A stretch of DNA of 64,000 nucleotides from IMG/VR virus record IMGVR_UViG_3300028591_000019, positions 13,408 to 77,407 of that record; one strand, 5' to 3'. Under the pieces are notes generated by a model. It was not told the DNA's origin. It saw only the letters and a list, made by a program, of their open reading frames with translations, and ran no database searches. Within the stretch, counting starts at the first letter, position 1; every line of letters begins with the position of its first letter. Origin of the DNA: a virus (lineage: Duplodnaviria > Caudoviricetes). A program made the position numbers and the translations under genes. Of this stretch, positions 3,660-57,786 are shown in pieces.

Positions 3660-3660
3660 A

Positions 3661-4722
3661 TCAGCTTTCCCTTACTGGCGGGAGAATCCCAAGTTCAGCC
3701 ATGACTTCCTGTTCGTGTTCTGTCGGTTTGTCCAACAGTTCGTGGAAGACATCCTTAACTTGTCCTTCTTTCGGCAACTCTATGAGTTCCGATTCTCCGT
3801 TGTTCCGTCTCATGGTATTGACCGTACACATGATTATCTCGTCCACAACATCAAGCGAGGTATGATACTGCGGATGGTCTTTCGCCAGAATCGCTCGGAG
3901 TTCATCCACTCCTACGATTTGGTTATTCTGAACCGCTCCCTTTTCTTCGAGGTGCGTAATCAGCGCATCCACCTTCATCGCTTCCAACGGCTTTACATCG
4001 GTCGCTCTCATACCTTCACGAGCCATAGCGTCTTTAATCATGTCCGAATAACGCTTTGCTCCTTGGGAATCCCCAAGACCGACACAGCGTTTCCATTCAA
4101 GACGGGATACGCAAATCTCTCGCAGAGACATATCTACTCGGGGAGTAATCGCTCCCTTGTACTCAGCCGCCTGTTCTTTATACAAAGACTCCAGTTCTTC
4201 CAGTTCACGCTTGGTGTACTCAACTGGCTCTCCACCCTCGGAGAATTTCGCCCCCCATCGCTCTCTTGCTTGGGCAAGGATTGTGTCTTTTCTTTTCTTC
4301 GGCTCTGCCTTTTCGTAGACCGTTTCTCCTGCACCGAAAGTTGCATATTCGCCAGACTGTGCATTACGGTTTAAGTTTTGCTCTCTTAAATTTTGAAGGT
4401 ACTGCTTCCAGTCTTTTGACTGGTGTGCTATCTCTGCGTAGAACGGCGTGTCACAAGCGGCACAATAAATGTAAATCGCCATGACCTTGTCCTTGCATTG
4501 CTTCTGTAGTTCCTTGACTTTCGCCGTCTGGCAGTCAATACACCACGGAAGATACCCAGTTTTAAACCAAGTGTTTCGGACTCCCTTAGAATTGCTCGGT
4601 ACTAATTCCTCTCCGCAGGATAAGCAAAATCTATAATTAAGTTTGGCATCTTGCTCCAAAATGATTCCTCTTTCCACAAGATAACTATTCTTGTCTGCGA
4701 GATGCCCAAAACCATTAAACAC
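3661..4722 (-). CDS. Putative terminase small subunit / Zn-finger packaging-associated protein
   Basis: 353 aa with CLSC, CIDC, CAAC pairs; immediately upstream of terL; function from position only. Confidence 0.5.
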   Translation of the reverse strand: MFNGFGHLADKNSYLVERGIILEQDAKLNYRFCLSCGEELVPSNSKGVRNTWFKTGYLPWCIDCQTAKVKELQKQCKDKVMAIYIYCAACDTPFYAEIAHQSKDWKQYLQNLREQNLNRNAQSGEYATFGAGETVYEKAEPKKRKDTILAQARERWGAKFSEGGEPVEYTKRELEELESLYKEQAAEYKGAITPRVDMSLREICVSRLEWKRCVGLGDSQGAKRYSDMIKDAMAREGMRATDVKPLEAMKVDALITHLEEKGAVQNNQIVGVDELRAILAKDHPQYHTSLDVVDEIIMCTVNTMRRNNGESELIELPKEGQVKDVFHELLDKPTEHEQEVMAELGILPPVRES

Positions 4723-4769
4723 GGCATCTCGCCTTTCTTTCTTGGAGGAAGGACGCTTGTGTGAATCCT

Positions 4770-4823
4770 AAAAAAAATAGCACACCTGTCGTTCCTCAGA
4801 GAGGTTAGCACGACAAGTGTGCT
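4770..4823 (-). terminator. Intrinsic terminator between replication operon and packaging genes
   Basis: Minus strand AGCACACTTGTCG...CGACAGGTGTGCT followed by a T8 run. Confidence 0.7.
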
Positions 4824-4889
4824 GATTAGAAAGGTACACCACTACCCAACTACGCTTGTATTATACCACATTTGGTATTTGTTTGTCTA

Positions 4890-5090
4890 TCATTTATCGA
4901 CTAACTGTCTCCGATATATGATAGAAGTTCGCTTACATAACTCGCATCTTACGGTTGCAACTACGTCCGTGTCCTTATTGTACGGTACGTTCACCTCTCG
5001 TCCCCTGTGCCTTATACACAGAAAGTTTTCCTTATACACGCCAAGAGGTCTTCCGCACGTTTCGCAAATAAGAATACGTTCCTTTTGCAT
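4890..5090 (-). CDS. Small Zn-ribbon protein, Com-like regulator candidate
   Basis: MQKERILICETCGRPLG...VRCELCKR; CxxC...CxxC in about 66 aa; start uncertain. Confidence 0.5.
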   Translation of the reverse strand: MQKERILICETCGRPLGVYKENFLCIRHRGREVNVPYNKDTDVVATVRCELCKRTSIIYRRQLVDK

Positions 5091-5094
5091 CCTG

Positions 5095-5325
5095 CTATGA
5101 TATTCTCCTTTCTGTCTTGAACAGCGACAGCGGAACAGCATAACAGTCTATCGTCCCGTTGCTCTGTATCGGACACCGTACTATGTCCCTGTAATCGCAA
5201 CTGTAAATATCTGGCAACGATTTCGCCTGTGTGAACTTCACAAGGTTCTTTCCTTTTCCTACCTTATACGTTGCAATCAGTACTACTCTATCCTTCCATC
5301 TTGGTTGCCTTATCTCGATACACAT
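5095..5325 (-). CDS. Hypothetical protein
   Basis: 76 aa ORF tightly packed in the operon. Confidence 0.55.
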   Translation of the reverse strand: MCIEIRQPRWKDRVVLIATYKVGKGKNLVKFTQAKSLPDIYSCDYRDIVRCPIQSNGTIDCYAVPLSLFKTERRIS

Positions 5326-5804
5326 TACTCTTCCCCCTTATTCAAATCCAAATAAGTTATCCCTATTGCGTATGAACTCCAGACATCGGCTCGGAATCCG
5401 AAAAACCAATCTGGTTCATCCTTCGTTCCCTTTCCGTTTTTGAAGTCATGCTTCGCAAATCTGTCTATCAACGCTTGCCGTATATTTGCGTCCTTCGCTT
5501 TCATCGACCCGCAAAGGTTTATCTTCTCGTCCTTACGGAATATCGGGAACACGGAAATCCCTCTGTCTACAGCACATTGGATAAATCGTCCGTTCCATTC
5601 GATACTCTTAATCGTGCTTTGCCCTACCGCCATCCCGTAAGAAGCAAACGCTTCGTAAACCAGTTTCCCGTACTCCTCTGTCTTCACGATTCCAAGAAGT
5701 TCTTCGTTCGATATCTTCCCGAATCTCAACGGCATATACGTTTGTTCCTGCATAAGGCAGAAACCACTCTCTGTCGTTCCTACATCCAACGCCAAAATAT
5801 TCAT
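5325..5804 (-). CDS. RuvC-like Holliday junction resolvase
   Basis: N-terminal ILALDVGTTESG, LVYE, and C-terminal ADVWSSYAI acidic motifs of phage RuvC-like enzymes. Confidence 0.75.
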   Translation of the reverse strand: MNILALDVGTTESGFCLMQEQTYMPLRFGKISNEELLGIVKTEEYGKLVYEAFASYGMAVGQSTIKSIEWNGRFIQCAVDRGISVFPIFRKDEKINLCGSMKAKDANIRQALIDRFAKHDFKNGKGTKDEPDWFFGFRADVWSSYAIGITYLDLNKGEE

Positions 5805-5884
5805 CAGTCCAATAAAGCGAAGAGGATAAGAACTATAATCAACCGAACCGCTATTGCTACTGCCATCTCCGTCTGCTCCTTTCC

Positions 5885-7210
5885 TTAATCATCGAACGGG
5901 GCTTCCTCGCCCTCTACATCACGGAATCGTGATTCCGCATAATCGTTCTGGAAATCGTCCGCAGGATTGTCGAACCGATACTGCTCTCCAATCCATGTCA
6001 GCGGTAGCGAACCGCACGACCCGTTTCGGTTCTTTGCGATAATTAGCTTCGCTTCTCTCGGACTTATTTCCTCATCGTATACAGACGGTCTGTACGGGAA
6101 GAGGATAATATCCGCATCCTGTTCGATATCTCCAGATTCCCGAAGGTCTGACATAACAGGCTCATGCTCTGCTCTCTGTTCTGCGGAACGATTCAGCTGT
6201 GCAACGCAGATAACGGTACAGTCCATGTCCTGTGCGAGTCTCTTGAGAGCATGGGATATCTCTCCTATCTCCTGCGCTCTGGAACTATTCTTACGAACAT
6301 TCGTCTGCATAAGACCGATATAGTCTACGATTACCAAGTCGATTCCTCTTGCCTGTTTTGAAATCTTCCTGCATACCGTCTGCAACTTCGTGATAGAAAG
6401 TGTCCCGCTGTCGAATCCGTACATCTTCTTTGTCTTGAGCAGATTCGCAAACTCCTGCGTCTTGTTAAAAGCTGTTGAGGTGTCTTGCAACATTTCCTGT
6501 TCCGACATCCGAATCCCATTACAGATAAGACGCTTCATTATCTCGGAGTTCTTCATCTCAAGAGAGAACATCACGACCGTCTTGTCTTTCATCGCTACGT
6601 TCAATGCGATATTCTCTGCCAATGCGCTCTTGCCCATGCTCGGTCTTCCTGCTATGATGACAAGATTCCCTTTCCGCAAGCCGCCTATCGTTTTGTCAAG
6701 TTCCGTAAAGCCTGTCGGAGTTCCCTTTGTGTTGTCTCCGATTTCTGAGAAAGCGTTCAGCACTTCCATCTCGCCGTACTTGATAGCTTCCGTCTCGTCC
6801 CCATCCGCAATCGAATCCATTCTGGATTGCAGATTATCGAAGCAGGACTCGTTTTCTTCCTTGAACTCCTTTGCCGCTACACGCAACGCATCTCCAAACT
6901 TCCGTCTCTTAACTTGGCTTTTCAGCGTCTTGATATAGACGGGCATCTGCGACTTGTAATGTTCGCCTTGCAGGATATCCGTTATCACGTTCGTAATGAA
7001 GTCTGTTTCAAACAGGGAAGATACGGATACGAAATCAATCTTCTGATTCGACACATACAAGGCTTCCATTGCGGAGAATATTCTTCTGCAATCGTTACTG
7101 GAGAAATCATCCCTCTCCAGTTCTGCGAACGCTTGCTCAACGCTCTTCTCGTCTTCCATCATGCAACCGATTATCGCTCTCTCGATTACATTGTTCCGCT
7201 TTGCTTCCAT
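5885..7210 (-). CDS. dnaB: Replicative DNA helicase
   Basis: AGRPSMGKS, FSLEM, VDYIGLM, QLNR, SDLRESGDIEQDAD, KNRNG motifs. Confidence 0.95.
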   Translation of the reverse strand: MEAKRNNVIERAIIGCMMEDEKSVEQAFAELERDDFSSNDCRRIFSAMEALYVSNQKIDFVSVSSLFETDFITNVITDILQGEHYKSQMPVYIKTLKSQVKRRKFGDALRVAAKEFKEENESCFDNLQSRMDSIADGDETEAIKYGEMEVLNAFSEIGDNTKGTPTGFTELDKTIGGLRKGNLVIIAGRPSMGKSALAENIALNVAMKDKTVVMFSLEMKNSEIMKRLICNGIRMSEQEMLQDTSTAFNKTQEFANLLKTKKMYGFDSGTLSITKLQTVCRKISKQARGIDLVIVDYIGLMQTNVRKNSSRAQEIGEISHALKRLAQDMDCTVICVAQLNRSAEQRAEHEPVMSDLRESGDIEQDADIILFPYRPSVYDEEISPREAKLIIAKNRNGSCGSLPLTWIGEQYRFDNPADDFQNDYAESRFRDVEGEEAPFDD

Positions 7211-47054: not shown

Positions 47055-47498
47055 TCATAGTGTCACAAGATAGAGGAAGTCTCCTCGACCGCTTCTGCTG
47101 TTGCCGTAACAATATCCTTGTATATATGTTGCTCCACCCGCCACAAATGAAACATTATTGTAGGTGTTGTATCTGCCGACCGAGTTTGTAGAACCAGTAT
47201 TCTGATACTGCGAATCGTTCACATACAATCTCCATCTGCAATAGGTAATGTAGTTACCGCTTCCCGCTGTGTTCATATTACTGGTTGCCAACACATAGAT
47301 ATTCCCAGTAAATGACTTCTTGCAGTAGAACTGCCTAGATGTCGAATCATACGAAAAGTATTCTGGGTTGAAGCTTTCTTTAACATTCGTTGACGGTATC
47401 GTGTATGTGCTTCCGCTCATTTGACCGTAGAATGCAAGAACTGGCAACCCTGTTAAATCTGTTAAAGAAGCCTGTGGTACGTTAATAATTCCTGTCAT
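47055..47498 (-). CDS. Small beta-rich tail-tip-like protein, type A copy 2
   Basis: MTGIINV...EYFSYD...LYVN; parallels 50879-51316. Confidence 0.55.
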   Translation of the reverse strand: MTGIINVPQASLTDLTGLPVLAFYGQMSGSTYTIPSTNVKESFNPEYFSYDSTSRQFYCKKSFTGNIYVLATSNMNTAGSGNYITYCRWRLYVNDSQYQNTGSTNSVGRYNTYNNVSFVAGGATYIQGYCYGNSRSGRGDFLYLVTL

Positions 47499-47502
47499 AT
47501 CT

Positions 47503-47934
47503 TTAAGCTGTTGCGGTCATAAAGAAACCGCATTGTGTTCCGCACGTTCCGCTACCGTCAATCGTTACCGTCATTACGAACGTATCTCCTGCCTTAAAAC
47601 TCGCAGTCGCAGACGATGTTCCGCTACCAGTTGCTGTAACTGTCCCGCTTACTATCGTTGTTGTTGTGCCAGACGATGTCTTCTTAAAAGAATAATCTAC
47701 GCTTCGACCAGAACCGCCAGAACCCTGTCTATAGCTTCCCTTTCCGTATACAACAATATCGGCAGAGAAGTCTTTCAGTACAGTAAACGTGCCAGACGAA
47801 TAGGATAAGTAATCATGGGCATATCCGTAAACCGTATTGTTCCATGTCGCAGATGACGTAGTGGATTCTCTCCCGTAATAGCAAATCAACCCTTCAAAAT
47901 TCAAGCCACCTAGCGGAATAAATCCAGTTGCCAT
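47503..47934 (-). CDS. Small beta-rich tail-tip-like protein, type B copy 2
   Basis: YAHDYLSYSSGTFTVLKDF...SFKAGDT; clear paralog of 51313-51756. Confidence 0.6.
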   Translation of the reverse strand: MATGFIPLGGLNFEGLICYYGRESTTSSATWNNTVYGYAHDYLSYSSGTFTVLKDFSADIVVYGKGSYRQGSGGSGRSVDYSFKKTSSGTTTTIVSGTVTATGSGTSSATASFKAGDTFVMTVTIDGSGTCGTQCGFFMTATA

Positions 47935-47937
47935 ACA

Positions 47938-48180
47938 TTATTGCTCCTGCGGTTCGTCTTCTGGAATTACTATCCTGTTATCTACTGCGCTGTCACGAAC
48001 CATTCCATTCGCATCTATAACCATGCATTGCACATAATCAATCGTTGGCACATGACCGTATCCATATGCTCCAAGGTATGCGTGGAAGCCTTGACGAGCG
48101 GCTTCAAGCGTTTCGTGTACAACGACTCCTTTCGTGTATACCCCATCTGTTGACCTTTGAACTTGCACAAGAAAAAACAT
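47938..48180 (-). CDS. Small tail-module hypothetical protein
   Basis: 80 aa. Confidence 0.6.
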   Translation of the reverse strand: MFFLVQVQRSTDGVYTKGVVVHETLEAARQGFHAYLGAYGYGHVPTIDYVQCMVIDANGMVRDSAVDNRIVIPEDEPQEQ

Positions 48181-48197
48181 ATCATCTCTCTCCCCTA

Positions 48198-49475
48198 TTA
48201 ATTATCTTTCTTTATTAGCAAAACATTCGCTGTTGTCGCTGACGAACACGTTCCGTTTAGAACAAGAGAACCGCTCGATGTTGTCCAGTTAATCTGTGAA
48301 GTAATAGCTGACGGATTCGCAAACACACAGTTTGCGACAACATGGTCTGCCGTAATGCTTGCATCCGTGACAGTAGCAAAGTCTCCTGTCGTTGCTGAAC
48401 ACGCAACACTTGCAAAGTACAAATTACTGCTTGAAGAACTGGATGCTGTTTCGGCATTTGTCCATATCCTTATCTCTCCATTTGAATAGTAATATATTGG
48501 ATGCTCAACGGTTAAATTTATATTTGTAGCGTTATATGCCATGCCTAAGAAGATATAGACTTTCCCGTCTTCACTACTTGGCAATGATTGCGTATACCCA
48601 TCCATTTTTACCCCGCCGCCAGTTTGCGGAGTGCATTGCAGGTATACTGGCGCAGGATAGTTTAGCGTTAAAGCAGAACCAGTTGTATTAAATGAATAAC
48701 CCAACAGCAACGCATATTGTTGATAAAGAACCCCATTAGCAATATTGCTCCCCGCCGTCTGTGTCCCATTAGCGGTGCAATATAAAATCGCACCAAACGG
48801 GTCAATCGTTCTTGTGTTTGGTGTCCTAGCCGCCGTTGCGTTAGTAGCTGTAGATGTGTTTGCGGGTACTAAGCTTTCGCCGTCAAGAGATGTAAACCAC
48901 AATCTGTACCTATATCCAGTATCGGCGGCTGTAAGCCCATAATAAAACGGGCGCAAATAGATTGTGTCTGTAGAATCAAATCCTTTGTAACAAACCCAAC
49001 AACCACCCGAAACTCTTGTCGAGTCATAAATAAACATCATTGTATAGTTGATGTTAAATATTGTAGATTCTGCTGTTGCCGCCGCCAGATTGTTATAAAC
49101 AGGCTTCGCACCAAGTCCATTAATATTGATAGTGAATCCCGCCGCCGATGTTACAACACCGTTCTTTAAAACGACACACACGCCATCATAATAGGAATCT
49201 AATCCATCAATAGTTGCCGTGAATACAGTAGAAGTACTTGTGCTATCAACTGCACCATAAAGAACCCCGTTTGACATCGTTGCGTTCCCGTTAGCAACTG
49301 GAGAATTAGCATACGTTGCAGTTCCTGTTGCTTGTACTCCAGACGCTAAATGAAAAGACTTTCCAGACACAACGTCTTCTGCTGTAGCAGTATCTCCAGT
49401 TAAATCTATAATTGTATCGTTGCCGTATACTACTTTATTGACAGCCATATATGCGTTCTCCTTATGACGGAGCAA
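48198..49475 (-). CDS. Tail fibre-like protein
   Basis: MAVNKVVYGNDTIIDLTGD start shared with the neighbour; T/S/G-rich mosaic body. Confidence 0.7.
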   Translation of the reverse strand: MLRHKENAYMAVNKVVYGNDTIIDLTGDTATAEDVVSGKSFHLASGVQATGTATYANSPVANGNATMSNGVLYGAVDSTSTSTVFTATIDGLDSYYDGVCVVLKNGVVTSAAGFTININGLGAKPVYNNLAAATAESTIFNINYTMMFIYDSTRVSGGCWVCYKGFDSTDTIYLRPFYYGLTAADTGYRYRLWFTSLDGESLVPANTSTATNATAARTPNTRTIDPFGAILYCTANGTQTAGSNIANGVLYQQYALLLGYSFNTTGSALTLNYPAPVYLQCTPQTGGGVKMDGYTQSLPSSEDGKVYIFLGMAYNATNINLTVEHPIYYYSNGEIRIWTNAETASSSSSSNLYFASVACSATTGDFATVTDASITADHVVANCVFANPSAITSQINWTTSSGSLVLNGTCSSATTANVLLIKKDN

Positions 49476-50058
49476 CAGTACCGATTGTTACAGTCTTACC
49501 ACCCGCCGCATTATCTGTTTCCGTGTACGCAATTGCGTTAACAGTTACTTGCGTATAGTAATCGTAATCGCCATCACCAGACGGTAAATATGTCTTTGCC
49601 GTTGTGTATGGAGTTACAGTTTTTGCCGTTGCCTTTTGGTCACCAGAACCAGTATATGTTCCTATTACACCAAGAATCGGAACGCCGTTCCTAATATTCC
49701 CCGCAATTATCTTTGCCTGTTCCGTAGAATCGATACTAACCGTCCCAGTACCGTCATGGTATCCGTTCTGAATCGTGTATGTCCCCGCAACTGTTGAAAT
49801 CGTACCCGATACCGAACCACGATTCGGCATTGTGCCAGTCAGTTCAACACCATTCTTATACGCTGTCTTTCCTGCAAGGATTTCAGCCGCTGTAGCTGTC
49901 GCATCGGAAGTATCCGCATCGTAAGTACACGTTCCTGTGCTTGTTGCACCGCTTGGAAGATGAAATATCTTCCCTTCTAATACATCGGACGCTGTTACGT
50001 CATCGCCTGTTAGGTCAATAAGCGTCTGATTGCCGAATATAACCTTATTGATAGCCAT
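49462..50058 (-). CDS. Tail fibre-associated protein
   Basis: MAINKVIFGNQTLIDLTGD, GKTAY...GTMPN...GYHDG, GGKTVTIG. Confidence 0.7.
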   Translation of the reverse strand: MAINKVIFGNQTLIDLTGDDVTASDVLEGKIFHLPSGATSTGTCTYDADTSDATATAAEILAGKTAYKNGVELTGTMPNRGSVSGTISTVAGTYTIQNGYHDGTGTVSIDSTEQAKIIAGNIRNGVPILGVIGTYTGSGDQKATAKTVTPYTTAKTYLPSGDGDYDYYTQVTVNAIAYTETDNAAGGKTVTIGTVAPS

Positions 50059-50076
50059 ATCTATCAGTTATCTCCC

Positions 50077-50544
50077 TTATCCTATAGTTGCGGTTTCCCC
50101 GCCCTTAATATTGCTGACTTCCGTCAGAGGTATAGACAATACAGTTACGTCATCGTCCATAACAAGGTTCTGCGTTTCCATTGTCTGTTCATATGTTCTT
50201 GGTGTTGCGCTGTAAGACCCCATATAATGCTCGTATTCACCGCCGCCGCCCGTAGAAGAGACGATATCTCCCTTCCACATAGCTACCATCGTGGACTGGT
50301 TGCTTCCCATCCATATGCACCATACGGCATCTCCGACAGATGCATCGGATAGCGATGATGCGTATGGAATACGCATTTCATAGTCATCAAAAGCGTCCTT
50401 AACCCCTATCTTTCCGTCAGACGGGGCAGACGATACCATATACAGTTTCGACCGCATACAGTTGTCTGTCATCCGCTTCGTAACGGACTCGATAATAGGG
50501 GTTAAGTTCTTCGCTATCTTTACTGCTTCTGCGTTAGTGTTCAT
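50077..50544 (-). CDS. Tail/baseplate-associated protein
   Basis: C-terminal DVTVLSIP...GGETATIG parallels the end of 49462-50058. Confidence 0.55.
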   Translation of the reverse strand: MNTNAEAVKIAKNLTPIIESVTKRMTDNCMRSKLYMVSSAPSDGKIGVKDAFDDYEMRIPYASSLSDASVGDAVWCIWMGSNQSTMVAMWKGDIVSSTGGGGEYEHYMGSYSATPRTYEQTMETQNLVMDDDVTVLSIPLTEVSNIKGGETATIG

Positions 50545-50550
50545 TGCACC

Positions 50551-50856
50551 TTATTTCTTGGCTGTCGGTTCTTTCTTCTGAAGAAGCTGAACGATATTGT
50601 CGTATGTTCCGTTCGCCGCTACCGTAACAACGATTGCATTAACGAAAGCGATGCATACAGACTCTGCCGTCAGACCTACCGTGAAGTGTGTACCAAGGAT
50701 AATCCCGACAAGTGCCACAACATAGGCAATTACTTGAACAGGAATCTTTTTGAACCACTCCCACTCAATCTGTTTTACAAACTGAGTCACCATCGTTACG
50801 AGAAGTGTCGCTCCTGCGTTAGTCGCAAGGTATTCCCAAGTAAAAAATCCTTCCAT
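50551..50856 (-). CDS. Putative holin
   Basis: 101 aa, two to three hydrophobic helices, basic C-tail. Confidence 0.6.
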   Translation of the reverse strand: MEGFFTWEYLATNAGATLLVTMVTQFVKQIEWEWFKKIPVQVIAYVVALVGIILGTHFTVGLTAESVCIAFVNAIVVTVAANGTYDNIVQLLQKKEPTAKK

Positions 50857-50878
50857 TTCTATCCATTCCTTTCTTATG

Positions 50879-51316
50879 TTATGAAGCCAATCTAATTCCC
50901 ATGCCGCCAGTTATATACCCAGAAGTGCTTCCGTGGCATCTATACTGGACTGTGTCTCCTGCGCTTAATGAAACCGTAACAGACGCAAATGTATTTGTAC
51001 TTGTTGGTGCTGACCTCGTCCAAGTTCCTACAGTAGTTCCGTTCACACGCACCTCGCACGTTCCAGTATTCGATGACCCAGTATTCTGGTTATACATCTG
51101 GTTCATAAACGGGTCTATAACCACGTTACACCCCTGTAACGCAGTAAAAACTCCGTCTGCATATGAAAAATAATCATTGTTATAGACAACACGCAAATAG
51201 TTGTCTGGCGTTATCCATGCATTAGCCGTAGAACCATGCCCCATATACACGGCAATCGGAGCATCCGTCATATCTGCTCCTGCGCCATATGCTGATACAT
51301 TCGTAATTCCTATCAT
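50879..51316 (-). CDS. Small beta-rich tail-tip-like protein, type A copy 1 (C1q/TNF-like)
   Basis: DYFSYADGVFT...VRVNG...VSLSAGDTVQ. Confidence 0.55.
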   Translation of the reverse strand: MIGITNVSAYGAGADMTDAPIAVYMGHGSTANAWITPDNYLRVVYNNDYFSYADGVFTALQGCNVVIDPFMNQMYNQNTGSSNTGTCEVRVNGTTVGTWTRSAPTSTNTFASVTVSLSAGDTVQYRCHGSTSGYITGGMGIRLAS

Positions 51317-51756
51317 GTTGACCTCATCGTAATCATGAATCCCGCATCGACCAGATAAGTGTTCACAGTATGCGCCGCAGTAATCCGAACCGTGTCTCCT
51401 GCCTTAAAAGAATATGAAAACGCATCTGGTGTTCCATTCCCCGTATATGTGATTGTCCCAGAACTTACAGTAGTCGTTCTCACTAGAAACGTATATGTAA
51501 GCGGGAAATTGCCGCTACCTCCAGACGAACCATTTCTCGTTCCGCTTCCGACAATCCTCACGTTGCCAGTAAAGTCTTTTAAAACGGTAAAAACACCACC
51601 GCTGTAAGAGAAATAGTCGTGGCTATACGCATAGCTTGCGTTTGTTGCGGGGATTCCGTCCGCTCCTGCGGCTCTTCTGCCCCAATACCAACAGACAACA
51701 TCCCCAGAAGACAGCCCCGTATTTACTGGATTCATTCCGTTCGTCTTCCCTAGCAT
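51313..51756 (-). CDS. Small beta-rich tail-tip-like protein, type B copy 1
   Basis: YSHDYFSYSGGVFTVLKDF...SFKAGDT. Confidence 0.6.
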   Translation of the reverse strand: MLGKTNGMNPVNTGLSSGDVVCWYWGRRAAGADGIPATNASYAYSHDYFSYSGGVFTVLKDFTGNVRIVGSGTRNGSSGGSGNFPLTYTFLVRTTTVSSGTITYTGNGTPDAFSYSFKAGDTVRITAAHTVNTYLVDAGFMITMRST

Positions 51757-51768
51757 CTGTTGCTCTCC

Positions 51769-52626
51769 TTACTTATGTACAAGGATAGAAACGATATTCG
51801 GTGTCGTGGTATTGTCTTTTGCCCAGATATATACGTTATCTGAACCGCAATCGCACACAGGGCTGAACACACCAGACGTTGCGGATACGACATCGTACAC
51901 GACTTCTGCAAACATAGACGATGTCACTCCCGAACAAGAGATAGCGTACCGATAAGGATAATCGCTATTCGGGTCTACTGCCGTATTCGGGTTGTTTGTC
52001 GGAGAAGGAATCGTGGGAGACGTAAACTTCAATACGGTAGTGATGTTATCATCCAATGCTTCCCCGTCTACCGTTCTTGTAACAGGAACAGCCCCGATAT
52101 TCGCAGGAGTCGGATACGGATGAACGTGGTCTGCCCTTGAAAGATTGCTTGCAGTACCCGCACTAGCTGTAGAAGCCAACGGTAAAGCCGCTGTATCACT
52201 CGCTGTTCCCGTACCGTCTGTTCCGAATCTGGAAACCGTATAAATCTGAATCGGACTGCTGTTCTGGAAAGTAATTGTCGTTCTAACCCACAAATAACTG
52301 CCTTGCGGAACAGTCGGAACAGAAGAAGACCATGCTCCAGTCGGTACGTTTGTCCCACTTGTCCCCACTTGGTACTCAATTTCTTGAGAAGTAATGGTCG
52401 GTGGGCTTCCTGTGCTTCCCGTGTCTCCTTTATCTCCCTTATCTCCCTTAGAGACAAGCAATCCCCAAAATTCTCCCGCAACAGGGGTAACACCCTGTAC
52501 GGGTTGCAAGGCAATGAACGCAGAGCCACCGTAAGTTACGACATCAAGCCTAGAATAAGACGTAGAAGGGGAATATACCCCTTTCGGTGTCATCATTACC
52601 TTGCCTAAATTGACAGTTGTTGCCAT
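51769..52626 (-). CDS. Tail fibre protein with short collagen-like segment
   Basis: GDKGDKGDTG, PTGAWSSSVPTVPQGSYLWVRT, ADHVHP motifs. Confidence 0.75.
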   Translation of the reverse strand: MATTVNLGKVMMTPKGVYSPSTSYSRLDVVTYGGSAFIALQPVQGVTPVAGEFWGLLVSKGDKGDKGDTGSTGSPPTITSQEIEYQVGTSGTNVPTGAWSSSVPTVPQGSYLWVRTTITFQNSSPIQIYTVSRFGTDGTGTASDTAALPLASTASAGTASNLSRADHVHPYPTPANIGAVPVTRTVDGEALDDNITTVLKFTSPTIPSPTNNPNTAVDPNSDYPYRYAISCSGVTSSMFAEVVYDVVSATSGVFSPVCDCGSDNVYIWAKDNTTTPNIVSILVHK

Positions 52627-52657: not shown

Positions 52658-53020
52658 TTATCCCTTATCGCTCTCATCTGGTATGTCGTTCTTGGCTAAC
52701 TCATCGTACTTATGCGATGCAACCTCTACGACACCCTTCTTTACCGTTTCCACGCTCTTAATCGCCGCCATAGACAGCAATTCTACGCTCGTAAAATCGA
52801 ACCATTTCTGTATAAGCGTGTCGGAAACCTCATCCCCGTAGTAACTCAAGAACAAAACAGCAAGTGCGAACACGATATTCAGCACGATAACGAGTACAAC
52901 TATCTTCTTGCTGTATCTCGGCTGTTTTTCTGCTGATTCCGCATTTACTTCACCAGTTCCGTGTACTGTGGCTTCCCTGTTATGCATCCTCTGCCCCTCG
53001 GTGTCTCTATCCAGTACCAT
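52658..53020 (-). CDS. Membrane protein, holin-like
   Basis: SKKIVVLVIVLNIVFALAVLFL plus a second helix; directly after endolysin; start uncertain (about 52987). Confidence 0.5.
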   Translation of the reverse strand: MVLDRDTEGQRMHNREATVHGTGEVNAESAEKQPRYSKKIVVLVIVLNIVFALAVLFLSYYGDEVSDTLIQKWFDFTSVELLSMAAIKSVETVKKGVVEVASHKYDELAKNDIPDESDKG

Positions 53021-53703
53021 CCCGTGTCCTCATCCGTCTCAAGATAGGGTAATTTATCCCCTCTGTGCGCTGTAATGCCGATTTTAGGATAAATCGTACC
53101 CGCTCCCGTCCGAATAATGACAGAACCACCCTTAACAAGCACATACGGTGGCTTGACCGTAATCGGCTCTTCACTTCCATTCGTCAGAACCATCATCGTA
53201 TGCCCGTTCCCGACATACACATCGCCAACTTGTGCATAATTGTCGGAATTTGTATGCTTTGAGTCCGTAAATTTCTCGAATTTACCCGTCTGCATGAACG
53301 ATTTGACAATGCTCCCCGTATAACCGCTCGGAGCATGGTTCAGACCCGCAAAGATATAGCACGAAACAACGAGAGAAGAACAATCGAAATCACCTTTCCC
53401 CTTGGAGATAGCCATTTCAGCAGTACTTCCTGCTCGAATATAGGATTCTATGGATTTGTACCCTGTCCAACGATTAGGTTGGCTGTATCCGTAGTTGCGA
53501 TTGTCGCAAATCAAGCGCATATATCGTGCCGCCCTCTCTGCCATACTCTTATCCTTGCAACGAAGTACGGTATGCCACCCGTTTGTACGGACATAGAACT
53601 TCCTTGTCGCTATTTCTTTGCCTGTCTGGTCACCCGCAATAGCACCGTCAACTCCGATGCCACCGTTTTCGTCCATAACAGCGTGTCCTATTGTGACTGC
53701 CAT
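52945..53703 (-). CDS. Endolysin, NlpC/P60-like Cys-His catalytic domain plus SH3b-like binding domain
   Basis: YGYSQPNRW, DFDCSSLV, GDVYVGNGHT; C-terminal IRTGAGT...GWY. Confidence 0.82.
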   Translation of the reverse strand: MAVTIGHAVMDENGGIGVDGAIAGDQTGKEIATRKFYVRTNGWHTVLRCKDKSMAERAARYMRLICDNRNYGYSQPNRWTGYKSIESYIRAGSTAEMAISKGKGDFDCSSLVVSCYIFAGLNHAPSGYTGSIVKSFMQTGKFEKFTDSKHTNSDNYAQVGDVYVGNGHTMMVLTNGSEEPITVKPPYVLVKGGSVIIRTGAGTIYPKIGITAHRGDKLPYLETDEDTGWYWIETPRGRGCITGKPQYTELVK

Positions 53704-53772: not shown

Positions 53773-55086
53773 TTAAAGGGATAATCTCTGCAATTCTTCA
53801 TATTCCTTTATGTCTACAATCTGTAATGCCTGTTCCATCGGGAGAAACATCTTAAATCTCTTCTCCTCTCCCGTCATTCTGTACAATTTATTCCAGTAAT
53901 AGACGTTTGCAAGGCTTCTCGCCCTGTGCATCCAACAAATGTTCTTGTCCCGTTTGTTCATCGTGCCATACTTCTGGTAACACCATGCCGTACAACACCC
54001 ACATCCAGTACCTATCGAGCAGTAGAAGCACTCATCATCCGACATTGTTCTCCTGTCTATGCTTGCCATCTCATCACGAAGACGCTGATGCTCATGCTCC
54101 TTGTATATGCCGTTGAAGCAGTCCCCTATCACAACAGGCTTTTGCTCTCCGTTCAGCGACATCTCCATATATCGGATACAAGGATACGCTTTGCCGTCTA
54201 CATCAAAGGACAGCATCTGCCCCGAACCACCGCAATATGTGCTAAGTTCATGCTCTGATTGCGGGCGAAAAGAGAACTCTTGGAAGATATTTGTCTCGTA
54301 AATATGCTTGTCATCGTCAAGCATATAGTCGGCAATCTGCTTCAGCTGACGATAATACTCTTTCGCTTCCTCTACTGTCCATTCATGCTCATAAATAGGA
54401 TTTGCGTTGATTTCTGTGTACCCACGCTCCGCAAAATACTGTACTGTCTTATGAAAATGCGGCAGATTCTCTGGGGAAATCGTGACTTTTGTGCCTAAAT
54501 AGCGGTCAAATCTCTCCGTATAATCGAGAAGAGCCTTGTTTGCTTCTTCCCAACTACCGCTACCATCCGCATGAACACGGCAGGAATCGTGCATCTCCTT
54601 ATCTCCGTCCACCGTAACAGAGAACGATAATCTGCTCCCAAATCTCTCCAAAAATCTCTGCACAGACGGGTCAAAATAGCACACTCCGTTACTCGTAATA
54701 GAGATTCTGAAGTATTCTGCCCAGATATGCTTCCGTTCTATCGCCTTTCTCCAGAAATAATCGCAAGTATCGTAGATTAAATCTGCCGCAAGCAACGGTT
54801 CTCCACCGATGAACTCCAAAACAAGAGCCGTTGTGTTCTTGTTAATGAAACCATTCGGGTCATCCTCGTCATACATCTCGAACAGATAGTCTACGATGCG
54901 TTTTGCCGTATCCAGAGACATAAAACGCTTCCCTTTATGCGTTTCGTAGCAGTATTTGCATTGCAGATTGCACGAATCCGTCACGACAAACGTGACATTT
55001 CTCGTCTGTGCTATACCAAGAGGATTCTCTGGATGCAATTCCGATACCATTTCGTTGTATTGACGCACGATATCTTCACTCTCCAA
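53773..55086 (-). CDS. Radical SAM / SPASM peptide maturase, CXXX-repeat target type
   Basis: CNLQCKYC, FIGGEPLL, SNG, DGDKEMHD; SPASM cysteines CGG...YPC...CFYC...GCGCC...C. Confidence 0.9.
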   Translation of the reverse strand: MESEDIVRQYNEMVSELHPENPLGIAQTRNVTFVVTDSCNLQCKYCYETHKGKRFMSLDTAKRIVDYLFEMYDEDDPNGFINKNTTALVLEFIGGEPLLAADLIYDTCDYFWRKAIERKHIWAEYFRISITSNGVCYFDPSVQRFLERFGSRLSFSVTVDGDKEMHDSCRVHADGSGSWEEANKALLDYTERFDRYLGTKVTISPENLPHFHKTVQYFAERGYTEINANPIYEHEWTVEEAKEYYRQLKQIADYMLDDDKHIYETNIFQEFSFRPQSEHELSTYCGGSGQMLSFDVDGKAYPCIRYMEMSLNGEQKPVVIGDCFNGIYKEHEHQRLRDEMASIDRRTMSDDECFYCSIGTGCGCCTAWCYQKYGTMNKRDKNICWMHRARSLANVYYWNKLYRMTGEEKRFKMFLPMEQALQIVDIKEYEELQRLSL

Positions 55087-55384
55087 GAACGAACTTCATC
55101 TGCTTCGTATCGAACAGGAACTCATACCCATGCGGCTTGTTTCTTATGCTTTCTGGGCAGTATTTCTTGTCCATCTCGTCCTTGAGCATCTCCAGTTCTA
55201 CCCATCTCGTCTCGACAACATCGATATAATGCTGAAGAATATCCCAGTTTACGTCCTTATCCTTCATAAGAAACGCAATGTTATCTCTTCCCGCCTGTTG
55301 TTCGTAAAACTTCCTCTCTACAAGCAGACTGTCCTGCTCATCGATATCTACGATTCCCGCTTTAATCTCCAATTTAATTGCCAT
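55076..55384 (-). CDS. Accessory protein of the CXXX-repeat modification system
   Basis: 102 aa helical ORF between precursor and maturase, overlapping the maturase start; position and size match the recalled family. Confidence 0.6.
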   Translation of the reverse strand: MAIKLEIKAGIVDIDEQDSLLVERKFYEQQAGRDNIAFLMKDKDVNWDILQHYIDVVETRWVELEMLKDEMDKKYCPESIRNKPHGYEFLFDTKQMKFVLGE

Positions 55385-55411
55385 AATGGTTTTCTTTCCT
55401 CTCCCGTAGTT

Positions 55412-56032
55412 TTATCTTGCCTGTACGCCGCAAGTGCTTGTGCAATCTGTGCTACAAGTTCCCTTGCAACTCCCCTTGCACCCTTGCAAACATCCTGTAT
55501 AACAAGTTTTAATACAGTTTGTTTTGCAAGAGCCTTGGCAAGTCGTGTCACACGCACTTATACAATCAAACGAGCATACGCCGCCGCACCCGCTTGAGCA
55601 AGCATTGCCGCATCCAGAACATCCAGTACAGCTTCCAGTACAGCTTCCAGAACATCCCTTGCATCCAGACCCGCATCCAGTTACGCACAGCCCCGAACAA
55701 GACGATTTGCAGTCTGTCGTACTGCTTGTAACCTTATATCCTTCCGCTGTTGTAAGGAACGTGCCGAGTGCATCTATAGCCTTAATAACATCGCCAGAAG
55801 CCACTTCGGATATACCCGTGTCATTTATTGCATTGAGCGGTATTGCAATCTTATTAACGTGTTCTGGCAAGACCGCGCCACCTTCTGTAGGCTGTACTTC
55901 GTAGTCGTATGCAGAAGAACCGTAGGATACAAGCGTTCCCTTGTACTTCCTGCGGAGCATTTCCGCTTTTACCCTTGCTTTGAGAGCAATGAACTCTTCC
56001 GCAAGATATCTGTTCCCAACTGTTAATGCCAT
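55412..56032 (-). CDS. Cys-rich CXXX-repeat target protein with a 105-aa N-terminal domain
   Basis: 25 cysteines in the last ~100 aa, mostly spaced Cxxx (CKSSCSGLCVTGC...CSTDCTSTC). Confidence 0.88.
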   Translation of the reverse strand: MALTVGNRYLAEEFIALKARVKAEMLRRKYKGTLVSYGSSAYDYEVQPTEGGAVLPEHVNKIAIPLNAINDTGISEVASGDVIKAIDALGTFLTTAEGYKVTSSTTDCKSSCSGLCVTGCGSGCKGCSGSCTGSCTGCSGCGNACSSGCGGVCSFDCISACDTTCQGSCKTNCIKTCYTGCLQGCKGSCKGTCSTDCTSTCGVQAR

Positions 56033-56047
56033 ATCACGTTCGTCTCC

Positions 56048-56479
56048 TTATGCAAAGACTCCGCAAATCTTATGCCATTCTCCCTCGTAGTAATAGGACA
56101 GCGTACTGTCTTCTGGATTTATCCACAGCATAGTCGTATCGGTAGGCTGTGATGTCTGAATAACAAATCTTGAGTTTGTAAGACCAAGTGCCGCCCTTGC
56201 CGCTTCCTGTGTTGTTGCTCCTGTACCGCCGCAACTAATAGGGAGTGTGCCGAACTGCGGATTCCCAGACTCTGTCGCAAACACCGCTCCCGTTCCCGTC
56301 AAAGCCTGTACAGGATTCGTCCCTTGTCCTTCAAGAAGACCGCCTTGTGTAAGCGTGGTAGCACCCGTACCACCATTTTCGACAGCCATAAGTTCGACAG
56401 CGTTCGACAAATCGTTAAGGTTATCGGCATCTATCGGCGGGACGGAGTCGTTATTCCATTGTGGATTTACATATGCCAT
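56048..56479 (-). CDS. Short tail fibre-like protein
   Basis: NGGTGATT and CGGTGATT repeats, IDADNLN. Confidence 0.65.
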   Translation of the reverse strand: MAYVNPQWNNDSVPPIDADNLNDLSNAVELMAVENGGTGATTLTQGGLLEGQGTNPVQALTGTGAVFATESGNPQFGTLPISCGGTGATTQEAARAALGLTNSRFVIQTSQPTDTTMLWINPEDSTLSYYYEGEWHKICGVFA

Positions 56480-56502: not shown

Positions 56503-57786
56503 TTAAGCGTTTGCCATGCTCTTTAACGAGTCTGACAATGAAGTAACGGTCGCAATCGGGAAGTCGGATATCGATGTCGCAGATATCGTCATCTCTCCCG
56601 TCTGACCTATCGGTATCGTAAAGCCGTTGATAAGGTGCTTTTCGTATGGATTCCCTTGTTTATCTGGTCTTCGGATAAGAACAAGGCTGTTTTCCGTAAG
56701 GTGGAACATCTGCTGAGAAGATATCGAAATTGATTTCTTCAATACCGTATTCCTCTTGAGTTCAAACTCTGCCAAGTCCATGCAAACTTGGTTCGTATAG
56801 TATCCTGCCTTACTCTGCCTGTCCGTCTTCAGCCCGATGATATTGATATTTGTATCCGAACGTGGGTCAAAGTTCTGCGCTCTTCCCCCGACAACAGCAT
56901 ATCCATCGTTCAAAGCCTGTCCTACACGGATAATATCGTTCTTAACCTCGCTTGCGAGAATCGTATAGGTTGCTCCCAAGAACTGCTGTTCGCTTGTCGA
57001 GAACTCCCATTGCAACGGCTTATCTGTATCTAGGATATCGTCCTGCGAAGCATCAACTCTCAACGCTCCGTATGCATCGTATCCTATCCATCCCGCAATC
57101 ATCTCGTTTAATCCTAACAAAACGTCTGCGTATGTGTCTCCTTCTGAGTCAAATCGTGCCGTGTAAGGAGAACGGACAAGCGAAGCAAACGAACCGTCTG
57201 GAAGCTTCTGAATCTTGTCGTTGTAATAGTCCGTAAACACAGGCGGTGTCGTATCTATCGGGATTCCGTTACCGCTGTCTATCTGCAATATCCCGCTCAT
57301 CGCTTCAAAGATATTGGAATTAACAGGACATTCGTATGTCCCTTCAAACTGACCGCCTAATGTCCCGTCCAGAACTGCCCATTTATCGACAAGAGACAGC
57401 GTAGTCGTGTTCTCATTCGGTCGCAGAGATTCCTGCGGGTCTTTGATATAAAACACCCCTTGAGGAAGCAGATACGGCAATCCGTTTGGCAACTGTACCC
57501 CCATCAGCAAACGAACTTTTGTGCCTATCCACACGTTGTTCACGTTGTACGAGAACAAATCGTTGACATTTGCAAGCTGAATAGAAGCCGTTCTTCGCAT
57601 ACCGTTCTGCAAATTCACAGACAGACTCCCACCGTTCTGAATAAAGGTCTTATCCCTTTGCGATATGGAATTATCGTCTATTACGAACGCAACAGTATTG
57701 TCGGGCTGAAGAAACTCTAGCCGTGTCCGTTTACGAAAATTCGTTTTTAATGTCTGTAAATACAGTTCCCAATCGGTTTTCGGCAT
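56503..57786 (-). CDS. Tail / baseplate hub-like protein
   Basis: 427 aa; MRRTASI...QGVFYI; position after the distal tail gene. Confidence 0.6.
   Translation of the reverse strand: MPKTDWELYLQTLKTNFRKRTRLEFLQPDNTVAFVIDDNSISQRDKTFIQNGGSLSVNLQNGMRRTASIQLANVNDLFSYNVNNVWIGTKVRLLMGVQLPNGLPYLLPQGVFYIKDPQESLRPNENTTTLSLVDKWAVLDGTLGGQFEGTYECPVNSNIFEAMSGILQIDSGNGIPIDTTPPVFTDYYNDKIQKLPDGSFASLVRSPYTARFDSEGDTYADVLLGLNEMIAGWIGYDAYGALRVDASQDDILDTDKPLQWEFSTSEQQFLGATYTILASEVKNDIIRVGQALNDGYAVVGGRAQNFDPRSDTNINIIGLKTDRQSKAGYYTNQVCMDLAEFELKRNTVLKKSISISSQQMFHLTENSLVLIRRPDKQGNPYEKHLINGFTIPIGQTGEMTISATSISDFPIATVTSLSDSLKSMANA

Follow-up and report, generated by a model that had tools for sequence, protein, structure and literature searches.

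Three co-oriented genes in the tail module of a temperate phage of ruminant-gut anaerobes encode a cysteine-rich "ladder" protein, a small accessory protein and a radical SAM (rSAM) enzyme. On balance, the cassette appears to be the bacterial CXXX-repeat system of radical SAM maturation in a form adapted to phages, with a tail component as its substrate, and its product is probably an enzyme-crosslinked, stalk-like tail appendage. The stretch of DNA analysed (64,000 nucleotides, referred to as the window) derives from a complete 77-kb phage genome with DTR, in which a tape measure protein, an integrase and a CI-like repressor are encoded, the latter two in line with a temperate lifestyle. The cassette and its neighbours comprise the following features:

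56503 to 57786, minus strand: context, tail protein phrog_1887 (E 8e-27)
56048 to 56479, minus strand: context, tail-fibre-like protein of 143 aa directly upstream of the ladder gene, with weak tail-fibre PHROG matches and two GGTG motifs
55412 to 56032, minus strand: ORF of the ladder protein (target), 206 aa, PF27846 precomputed for an identical protein
55712 to 56032, minus strand: N-domain of the ladder protein, residues 1-107, small, helical and specific for phage ladder proteins
55430 to 55711, minus strand: cysteine ladder, residues 108-201, 25 cysteines
55076 to 55384, minus strand: accessory protein, 102 aa, remote homologue of TIGR04116 (CXXX_rpt_assoc)
53773 to 55086, minus strand: radical SAM/SPASM maturase, 437 aa, TIGR04115, phrog_1802
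54949 to 54972, minus strand: CxxxCxxC radical SAM motif, maturase residues 39-46, invariant across four aligned relatives
53935 to 54234, minus strand: SPASM region, maturase residues 285-384, seven conserved cysteines
52945 to 53703, minus strand: context, protein with an endolysin-like domain (PF25309, E 2e-47) and SH3, directly downstream of the maturase gene

The original prediction, made from the sequence of the window, had placed three co-oriented genes between tail genes and an endolysin and a fibre-like gene in front of the ladder gene, and both statements hold for the ORFs listed above. Further fibre-like genes are located beyond the endolysin-like/SH3 gene. The cassette genes are tightly packed and run in the same direction as the tail genes; the maturase gene has a TTG start and overlaps the accessory gene by 11 nt. 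No excess of promoter or terminator signals was found bracketing the cassette. Transporter, peptidase or immunity genes, the absence of which had been claimed before, were not recognised near the cassette by ORF, Pfam-type and PHROG annotation. A sheep-gut RNA library contains contigs which are 100% identical across the cassette and the tail genes, one of them bridging the fibre and the ladder gene. These contigs, which give neither strand nor level and might stem from DNA carry-over, hint at transcription of the cassette.

The maturase passes the NCBIfam profile TIGR04115 (rSAM_Cxxx_rpt) with 362 bits (cut-off 350) over positions 1 to 359 of 359. C39, C43 and C46 as well as C285, C303, C353, C356, C362, C365 and C384 are invariant in the alignment with four relatives; profile and cysteines confirm the radical SAM enzyme with CxxxCxxC and SPASM-type cysteines described earlier. 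TIGR04115 calls for an adjoining target whose cysteines recur every four residues, and the ladder gene is located two genes upstream of the maturase gene. The series TIGR04114 to 04117, named in the original prediction, turned out to be the right one. Its NCBIfam entries describe the CXXX-repeat system, namely a target repeat (TIGR04114), the maturase (TIGR04115), the accessory protein (TIGR04116) and target subfamilies (TIGR04117 and 04118), next to a second maturase (TIGR04119). The latter was not found in the phage genome, where the sole match was the SPASM region of the rSAM enzyme itself (24 bits, cut-off 150), and it was not found as a separate gene in about 170 viral or prophage loci either.

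Models of characterised families score lower on the maturase: the PapB family NF047865 with 170 bits (cut-off 340), SCIFF with 92 bits, QhpD (TIGR03906) with 91 bits (cut-off 453), HxsB with 73 bits (cut-off 370), the CrpC family TIGR04463 with 61.6 bits (cut-off 525) and the anaerobic sulfatase maturase TIGR03942 with 52 bits. The rSAM core is right at the start of the enzyme (the alignment to the SCIFF model begins with model position 97 at residue 29).

The HMM search proposed originally thus assigned the maturase to TIGR04115 and the accessory protein, remotely, to TIGR04116. The accessory protein itself does not match TIGR04116 even at E ≤ 1 (cut-off 50 bits). A profile search yielded 144 clusters of its family, about 90-100 aa large, and nine out of 80 family members touch TIGR04116 weakly. 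A profile built from 80 sequences (A5) aligned to a bona fide TIGR04116 member with an hhalign probability of 94.8% (E 5.5e-8), while the narrow profile A2 gave no significant alignment (E 0.12). The PqqD model PF05402 matched neither the accessory protein nor any other part of the cassette in five prophage-bearing genomes, and an RRE-like role of the accessory protein is therefore unsupported by sequence.

The ladder protein carries its 25 cysteines within residues 108-201. Four residues separate successive cysteines in 21 of the 24 spacings and three residues in the other three, in agreement with the predicted 206-aa protein ending in 25 cysteines mostly four residues apart. The filler residues are rich in Gly, Ser and Thr, with 3-4% Asp at each filler position, and 107 residues precede the first cysteine. 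Among 32 dereplicated relatives, 983 spacings of four, 302 of three and 19 others were counted. The ladder-coding DNA is nearly without tandem repeats (one 12-nt unit, 2.8 copies); thus, the cysteine period is held at the protein level and is due neither to recent duplication nor to chance. In a bovine-gut strain, 130 nt of the ladder are replaced by 142 nt (net +12 nt). PF27846 (tSAM_targ_Cxxx_rpt) is precomputed on a protein identical to that of the window, for which TIGR04117 gave a weak match (17 bits, cut-off 50) and TIGR04114 none; the ladder protein of the relative locus L001 reaches TIGR04114 (21 bits, cut-off 20). The full-length protein was modelled by AF2 with a pLDDT of 45 overall and about 30 in the ladder, for which no fold is predicted. 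The protein ends right after the ladder without any further domain, and no signal peptide, TM segment or cell-wall-binding domain is visible in it.

The long N-terminal domain, formerly suggested to replace a short leader, comprises 107 residues, is predicted to be helical and represents the usual architecture in phage loci. A conserved N-domain was found in 33 homologues of the ladder protein, and it is present in 63 of 80 viral loci and in 18 prophage loci (17 of 18 for the linkage to the enzyme), only beside this rSAM enzyme wherever the contig allows the assessment. Modelled alone from 32 sequences, it is predicted to form three to four helices (AF2, pLDDT 65). From the PDB, Foldseek returned nothing below E 4, and its BFVD matches were confined to uncharacterised proteins of this family; neither database showed a likeness to known fibre domains. 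The domain was not found inside longer proteins either, which is weak evidence. Since the N-domain is conserved across lineages whose flanking tail genes are unrelated, its only conserved partners are the accessory protein and the enzyme, and docking of the maturase therefore fits this domain as well as, or better than, docking to the virion.

Judged by sequence, the cassette is common to hundreds of uncultured phages. At least 300 viral stretches contain the arrangement of N-domain plus ladder, accessory protein and rSAM enzyme, and the genes are co-oriented in nearly all of them. In the loci L001, L004 and L005 it lies between fibre genes, and a tail-fibre-like gene upstream of the ladder gene is kept in L004/L006 and L005/L007. 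Among the 125 flanking genes of 33 dereplicated loci, the annotated families in the top 25 are exclusively tail fibre, tail, virion structural and endolysin families. In most related phage loci, as in the window, the cassette is embedded among tail-fibre genes. Most loci have the first ladder cysteine near residue 105-120, making a two-domain target rather than a leader-core peptide the norm in phages, and the ladder contains between 11 and 122 cysteines.

In at least eight contigs of one subgroup, the reading frame of the ladder extends into a beta-rich C-terminal domain of 125-190 aa. Between variant classes, this domain shares only 19-62% identity, compared to 80-96% for N-domain and ladder, and it is swapped between phages. 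For L149 and L159, searches of isolate phages, Pfam and PHROGs with the swapped domain gave no match. In L165, the ladder is fused to two glycine-rich PF12810 domains (E 5e-90), and in permuted relatives the ladder comes first and the helical domain last. In-frame fusion of a ladder to hypervariable C-terminal or glycine-rich domains is expected of a fibre shaft. Of the two features taken to mark a tail fibre, the position in a tail-fibre block was found in the window itself and the exchange of the distal domain in relatives only, not in the window's protein.

The cassette is also present on contigs of 130-244 kb, which makes simple carriers of lysogenic conversion unlikely, and in TAG-recoded phages. 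Prophage relatives (loci L087-L104, among relatives of Flavonifractor, Christensenella or Oscillospiraceae) reside in strictly anaerobic Clostridia, hosts that fit the oxygen-sensitive rSAM chemistry. The cassette was not found in isolate phages, the best phage-database matches being uncultured contigs. Blastn with the cassette gave no match. With the ladder protein as the query, tblastn did not match any isolate phage either, probably due to low-complexity filtering. In Salmonella phage SPAsTU (SPN3US-like), unannotated ladder ORFs adjoin two distant rSAM genes (enzymes about 24% identical); no usable statement on these ORFs was found for the virion proteome.

The cassette shares with the bacterial CXXX-repeat system (e.g. 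L002, MT837480.1) the TIGR04115 maturase, a target with a cysteine every three to four residues (PF27846 by precomputed annotation), a helper of about 95 aa homologous to TIGR04116 at the profile level, and adjacent, co-oriented genes. In contrast to the L002 target, which has a Tat signal and adjacent tatA and tatC genes, the phage target bears the helical N-domain of 107 aa and is encoded without tatA/tatC. Furthermore, the bacterial system includes TIGR04119, which the phage genome lacks, while the phage cassette is located within a tail-fibre block and its accessory protein is too diverged for a direct TIGR04116 match.

Covalent crosslinks stabilising a phage particle are known from the isopeptide chainmail of the HK97 capsid, which is formed autocatalytically and between molecules. 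There, the capsid is concerned, whereas here a dedicated radical enzyme is proposed to act on a protein of the tail module; to our knowledge, no enzyme-installed thioether is known in a virion protein. Crosslinking of cysteines to other residues inside a functional protein subunit is carried out by the rSAM/SPASM enzyme QhpD on QhpC of quinohemoprotein amine dehydrogenase. Unlike the ladder protein, QhpC is the subunit of an enzyme, in which three crosslinks are made; it is transported to the periplasm and lacks a repeat ladder, and the QhpD score of the phage enzyme is far below the cut-off.

The best-scoring characterised relative, PapB, forms one thioether per motif in the serial, four-residue-spaced cysteine motifs of PapA (freyrasin; PMC12373016). 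PapA differs in being a short leader-core peptide of CXXXD motifs with Asp as the acceptor (PMC12373016). A PapB-type ranthipeptide was rejected for the window on the basis of the score below the cut-off and the Asp content of the ladder, which shows no acceptor pattern of the CXXXD/E type. A canonical RiPP cluster was likewise ruled out by the conserved substrate domain of 107 aa and by the lack of a nearby peptidase or transporter and of an RRE.

Thioether crosslinking of a cysteine-rich protein by an rSAM/SPASM enzyme has been demonstrated for CrpA/CrpC of Methanococcus voltae (Dieter et al. 2026, PMC13692751). CrpC is similar to the phage maturase in its SPASM architecture with seven auxiliary cysteines, and it introduces thioether (ranthionine) crosslinks into a repeat protein rather than a peptide (PMC13692751). 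The N-terminal domain of CrpA promotes engagement of the enzyme, a small companion protein improves processing, and a metal-related role was proposed for CrpA (PMC13692751). However, CrpC belongs to another family (TIGR04463) and has a fused RRE, while the phage enzyme starts directly at the rSAM core, and CrpA is an archaeal, cellular protein without any link to viruses, whose 17-residue repeats contain C-X-X-Q/D instead of CXXX. In the antiphage system HXS (HxsA-D; Li et al. 2026, PMC13128918), rSAM enzymes together with a small protein mature a repeat-bearing effector that also has a folded domain. HXS differs in its His-Xaa-Ser repeats, its bacterial defence function and its periplasmic effector with a peptidoglycan-binding domain, compared to a phage-encoded cassette in a late tail operon here. 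No paper describing such a system in phages was found in the literature on TIGR04115, CXXX repeats, phage ranthipeptides and phage cysteine-rich proteins with radical SAM enzymes, and no characterised TIGR04115 member in the searchable literature. The earlier statement that no characterised example exists thus still holds for phages, but the general principle has a precedent in CrpA/CrpC (PMC13692751).

Taken as a crosslinked tail appendage, the cassette might act as follows. During late infection, with a strict anaerobe as the host, the ladder protein, its TIGR04116-like helper and the TIGR04115 maturase would be made from the tail operon, of which the cassette would be a co-transcribed part. 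As the analogy to PapB, the SCIFF maturases, QhpD and CrpC suggests, many of the ladder's 25 cysteines would be turned by the enzyme into thioether crosslinks within the protein, and the segment without a predicted fold would become a chain of small covalent rings, i.e. a stalk that is stiff and withstands both reduction and proteases. The helical N-domain, standing in place of the Tat signal of the bacterial-type relative, may serve as a handle for assembly or attachment and perhaps for enzyme docking as well; in some relatives, a swappable binding domain would be located at the far end of the ladder. Compared with the original proposal of a crosslinked appendage, the maturase family, the position in the tail-fibre block and the two-domain target are borne out, while thioether chemistry, incorporation into the virion and a rigid, protease-resistant or metal-binding nature of the product are putative. 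The tail-appendage reading is weakened by the lack of the Asp acceptors of PapA-type CXXXD motifs in the ladder, by the absence of a confident AF2 fold or of likeness to known fibre domains, and by the fact that chaperones, morons and other non-structural genes also occupy tail-fibre regions. As the window's ladder protein has no domain beyond the ladder, the analogy to receptor-binding proteins rests on its relatives.

A different modification of the ladder, such as formylglycine formation from cysteine, epimerisation or C-methylation, or a mainly metal/Fe-S-binding or disulfide segment with few modified residues, is rather unlikely. The SPASM family includes the anaerobic sulfatase maturases (TIGR03942), the ladder has no acidic acceptor motif and TIGR04115 is without a characterised member, all of which would be compatible with such a chemistry; on the other hand, the closest-scoring characterised families (PapB, SCIFF and QhpD) all form thioethers, and the strict period of three to four residues with small filler residues suits serial formation of small rings. 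It is unlikely, too, that the ladder protein is matured but absent from the finished particle, being made late and set free in soluble form when the cell lyses (for instance as a bacteriocin-like agent, a factor that binds metals or surfaces, or a modulator of adsorption), with an N-domain used for leader-like docking only. Conservation of the N-domain together with enzyme and accessory protein instead of the adjoining tail genes, the Tat export in bacterial relatives, the end of the window's protein right after the ladder, and the enzyme engagement and metal-related role described for CrpA (PMC13692751) would be in accordance with such a product. It is opposed by the lack of peptidase, exporter and immunity genes and by the consistent position inside fibre gene blocks rather than at the operon end. 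Moreover, fusions to hypervariable and glycine-rich domains are hard to square with a leader-core arrangement, and the permuted domain order argues against a simple N-terminal leader.

Tail-fibre assembly proteins are typically encoded directly after fibre genes, and a fibre-like gene precedes the ladder gene in the window as well as in L001, L004 and L005. That the cassette is an assembly aid, with a chaperone- or scaffold-like cysteine-rich protein which folds or attaches neighbouring fibres and is then discarded, is nevertheless improbable: a chaperone would need no dedicated rSAM enzyme, a range of 11 to 122 cysteines would not be expected of it, the upstream fibres are unrelated between lineages, and being fused to swappable distal domains is characteristic of structural fibres. 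Defence islands are often found near tail or lysis genes, and the phage is temperate, as would suit a prophage-borne moron acting in defence or superinfection exclusion during lysogeny; rSAM-matured repeat proteins such as the HxsA effector can block the entry of phage DNA (PMC13128918). This origin is hardly probable at all given the tight, co-oriented packing with the tail genes without bracketing promoter or terminator signals, the ladder protein without signal peptide or cell-wall-binding domain, the low HxsB score, and the occurrence on the 130-244 kb contigs and in TAG-recoded phages.

For a tail appendage, the consequences would extend beyond the phage of the window. It is possible, if short of probable, that the host-recognition apparatus of many phages of anaerobes consists in part of an rSAM-stapled cysteine-ladder rod of 11-122 units, anchored by a helical domain and sometimes carrying an exchangeable binding tip. 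In such a rod, a structural protein of the virion would for the first time bear thioethers put in place by an enzyme. As a fibre shaft it would be of a new kind that is not related to the beta-helical or coiled-coil ones, a covalent chain of rings taking the place of a folded trimeric shaft. RiPP-type radical chemistry would then reach virus particles, beyond small secreted peptides, the "ranthipeptide" gene-cluster calls in genomes of gut Clostridia would be explained as prophage tail genes, and the uncharacterised TIGR04115 family would gain a tractable substrate. A genetically encoded, enzyme-stapled rod with a length set by the repeat number would also be of biotechnological appeal. A tail appendage of this kind would further suggest that phages of the anaerobic gut rely on oxygen-sensitive maturation steps, with a bearing on why they are difficult to propagate and on how stable their particles are under proteolytic, reducing conditions.

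The three co-oriented genes of the original prediction, with products of 206, 102 and 437 aa, were all recovered as open reading frames (ORFs) on the minus strand of the window:

55412-56032, minus strand, ORF, ladder protein (206 aa)
55076-55384, minus strand, ORF, accessory protein (102 aa)
53773-55086, minus strand, ORF with TTG start, radical SAM (rSAM) enzyme (437 aa), overlapping the 102-aa gene by 11 nt

Residues 1-107 of the 206-aa protein (the N-domain) are free of ladder cysteines. The 25 cysteines expected at mostly four-residue spacing lie across residues 108-201, with 21 spacings of four and three of three, and the filler residues are for the most part Gly, Ser and Thr. Since the ladder-coding DNA is scarcely repetitive (a single 12-nt unit, 2.8 copies), the period is upheld at the protein level. 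The enzyme contains CxxxCxxC at residues 39-46 and seven further cysteines, invariant in an alignment with four relatives (35-57% identity), in agreement with the SPASM-type set assigned to it.

The HMM search proposed for the enzyme placed it in the curated NCBIfam family TIGR04115 ('radical SAM peptide maturase, CXXX-repeat target family'; 362 bits, cut-off 350, aligned end to end). It fell far short of the models of characterised families, namely PapB (170 bits, cut-off 340), SCIFF (92, 425), QhpD (91, 453), HxsB (73, 370) and the CrpC family (62, 525). PF27846 (tSAM_targ_Cxxx_rpt) is precomputed on a protein identical to the ladder protein, which matched the local models only weakly (TIGR04117, 17 bits). 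The 102-aa protein had no direct match in family-model scans; when 1.84 billion representatives were searched with a profile, 144 clusters were recovered, almost all with lengths of 90-100 aa. An 80-sequence accessory profile aligned end to end (hhalign probability 94.8%, E 5.5e-8) with a genuine TIGR04116 member (104.6 bits on that model) from L002 (MT837480.1), and nine of the 80 sequences touch TIGR04116 individually. Because of these matches, the 102-aa protein is read as a putative diverged TIGR04116 accessory. Model searches did not find the second maturase, TIGR04119, in the entire phage genome, nor as a separate gene among about 170 related loci. The enzyme lacks an RRE-like extension at its N-terminus (the SCIFF alignment begins at model position 97, which pairs with residue 29), and the PqqD model did not detect the accessory.

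L002 is filed as 'Bacteriophage sp.', but is bacterial-looking over positions 2222-6270, where it encodes a full CXXX system (Tat-signal target, TIGR04115, TIGR04119, TIGR04116, then tatA- and tatC-like genes). Its target carries a Tat signal where the phage ladder protein has the N-domain; thus, the N-terminal 'address' varies with destination.

The 77,407-bp IMG/VR record has direct terminal repeats and is rated complete. Its genes for an integrase, a CI-like repressor, replication and a tape-measure protein mark it as a temperate tailed phage. The minus-strand gene order is tape measure, 1061-aa tail protein, phrog_1887 tail protein, 143-aa fibre-like protein, ladder protein, accessory, rSAM enzyme, endolysin-like-domain/SH3 protein, small membrane protein and further fibre-like genes. 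The endolysin-like/SH3 and membrane-protein genes (52658-53703) thus lie within the fibre region, and two more fibre-like genes, each followed by small beta-rich genes, occupy 47055-52626 (51769-52626 and 48198-49475), which could mean either a virion-associated 'lysis' pair or a split fibre block. Promoter-like or terminator-like signals bracketing the cassette were not found, counts being no higher than the shuffled expectation. Gut metagenomes of sheep and cattle, from several studies, contain near-identical DNA. Contigs from a sheep-gut RNA library are identical over the cassette and tail genes, one of them bridging the fibre and ladder genes; they weakly support a tail cassette, as DNA carry-over could explain them too. 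Prophage copies of the N-domain protein are found in genomes of Oscillospiraceae, Christensenella, Flavonifractor and other Clostridia. These hosts are strict anaerobes, matching the requirement of radical SAM chemistry.

The enzyme profile matched 304 viral stretches and a second profile 224. In the best 80 of the 304 (39-56% identity; 47 clusters at 85% enzyme identity), the N-domain protein is present in 63 loci, on the same strand as the enzyme and adjoining it on the upstream or downstream side, and the ladder almost always starts at residue 105-120. The accessory immediately precedes the enzyme in at least 41. In bacterial genomes, the enzyme lies within 2 kb in 17 of 18 N-domain loci, the last being cut by a contig end. 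The trio might have been located mostly outside tail modules; instead, when 125 genes flanking 33 dereplicated cassettes were compared with PHROGs, the annotated families among the top 25 were all tail fibre, tail, virion structural or endolysin. These tail genes are mostly unrelated from lineage to lineage, and therefore the cassette moves as a module among tail regions. It is also found on contigs of 130-244 kb. In some viral contigs (L012, L018, L019, L023-L030, L034, L039, L053, L084; about a dozen loci), the rSAM gene and its neighbours are fragmented under table 11, but long ORFs return with TAG as sense, and three of them (L012, L018, L030) then encode ladder proteins of 190-193 aa. These are probably TAG-recoded phages with the same cassette. 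Many cassettes have a fourth gene, located between those for the ladder protein and the accessory, which is not present in the window (L001:7101-7709, L009:7178-7690, L013:7115-7690, L015:7050-7583, L043:7063-7620, L060:7077-7649, L069:7108-7659). Its product, of about 170-200 aa, is diverged and on visual inspection looks acidic and helical; jackhmmer found no homologues of the L001 protein among the other loci.

Ladder length ranges from 11 to 122 cysteines. Among 32 dereplicated ladder proteins, spacings of four (983) outnumber spacings of three (302), 19 being of other sizes, and Asp makes up only 3-4% at each filler position. A bovine-gut strain (26-kb metagenome contig matching over the whole stretch) has 142 nt in place of 130 nt of the window ladder (55480-55611), the net 12 nt being the size of one additional CXXX unit. 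In addition, this strain carries one extra nucleotide after 55393, in the spacer that separates the ladder gene from the accessory gene. In closely related contigs (L149-L180) a conserved linker joins the ladder in frame to a C-terminal domain that is beta-rich and 125-190 aa long; in L163 and L167 this domain is a separate ORF just downstream. It shares 19-62% identity from one variant class to another, compared to 80-96% for N-domain plus ladder, a mosaic pattern typical of receptor-binding tips. In L165, a 40-Cys ladder is fused to two glycine-rich domains (PF12810, ALK_LTK_GRD-type; E 5e-90). Glycine-rich proteins adjoining or fused to ladder proteins (L004:4901-5674, L165:3703-6207) hint that these two low-complexity modules pair repeatedly in fibre regions. 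The order is permuted in L072, L107, L147 and L151, with the ladder first and the helical domain last.

The best-supported reading is that enzyme and accessory would install serial intramolecular thioether crosslinks in the ladder late in infection, and that the product would serve as a stalk-like tail component. Family membership, obligate linkage, position in the tail block and fibre-like modularity in relatives form its genomic basis. We infer the reaction from analogy with PapB (PMC12373016), SCIFF maturases, QhpD and CrpC (PMC13692751); physical properties and virion incorporation of the ladder protein are likewise presumed. The archaeal CrpC, a recent precedent for rSAM thioether crosslinking at the protein level, acts on a 29-kDa Cys-rich protein, which it engages via the substrate's N-terminal domain (PMC13692751). 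As the accessory and enzyme are the only conserved partners of the N-domain, the latter may be a docking handle for maturation instead of a virion anchor, or both. The structure prediction suggested for the precursor gave low confidence (pLDDT 65 for the N-domain and 45 over the full length), and the N-domain had no PDB match.

A ladder chemistry other than thioether formation, wherever the protein is located, is possible but on the unlikely side; in its favour, no TIGR04115 member is characterised in the literature searched, and the ladder is without acidic acceptors. That the ladder protein is made late and set free at lysis, its N-domain serving as a leader-like handle, is unlikely, and a function as fibre-assembly aid is quite improbable. 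Defence or a moron expressed in lysogeny, for which analogy with HXS (PMC13128918) could be adduced, appears least probable.

Salmonella phage SPAsTU (L105, an SPN3US-like jumbo phage) contains three unannotated CXXX-ladder ORFs at 2103-3124 (130, about 130 and 68 aa). They are flanked on one side by the gene of a 'putative virion structural protein' and on the other by two genes annotated as radical SAM, whose products share only about 24% identity with the window enzyme. No report of a CXXX-ladder/rSAM system in a phage or tail context was found in the literature. The component families are already known as computational definitions.
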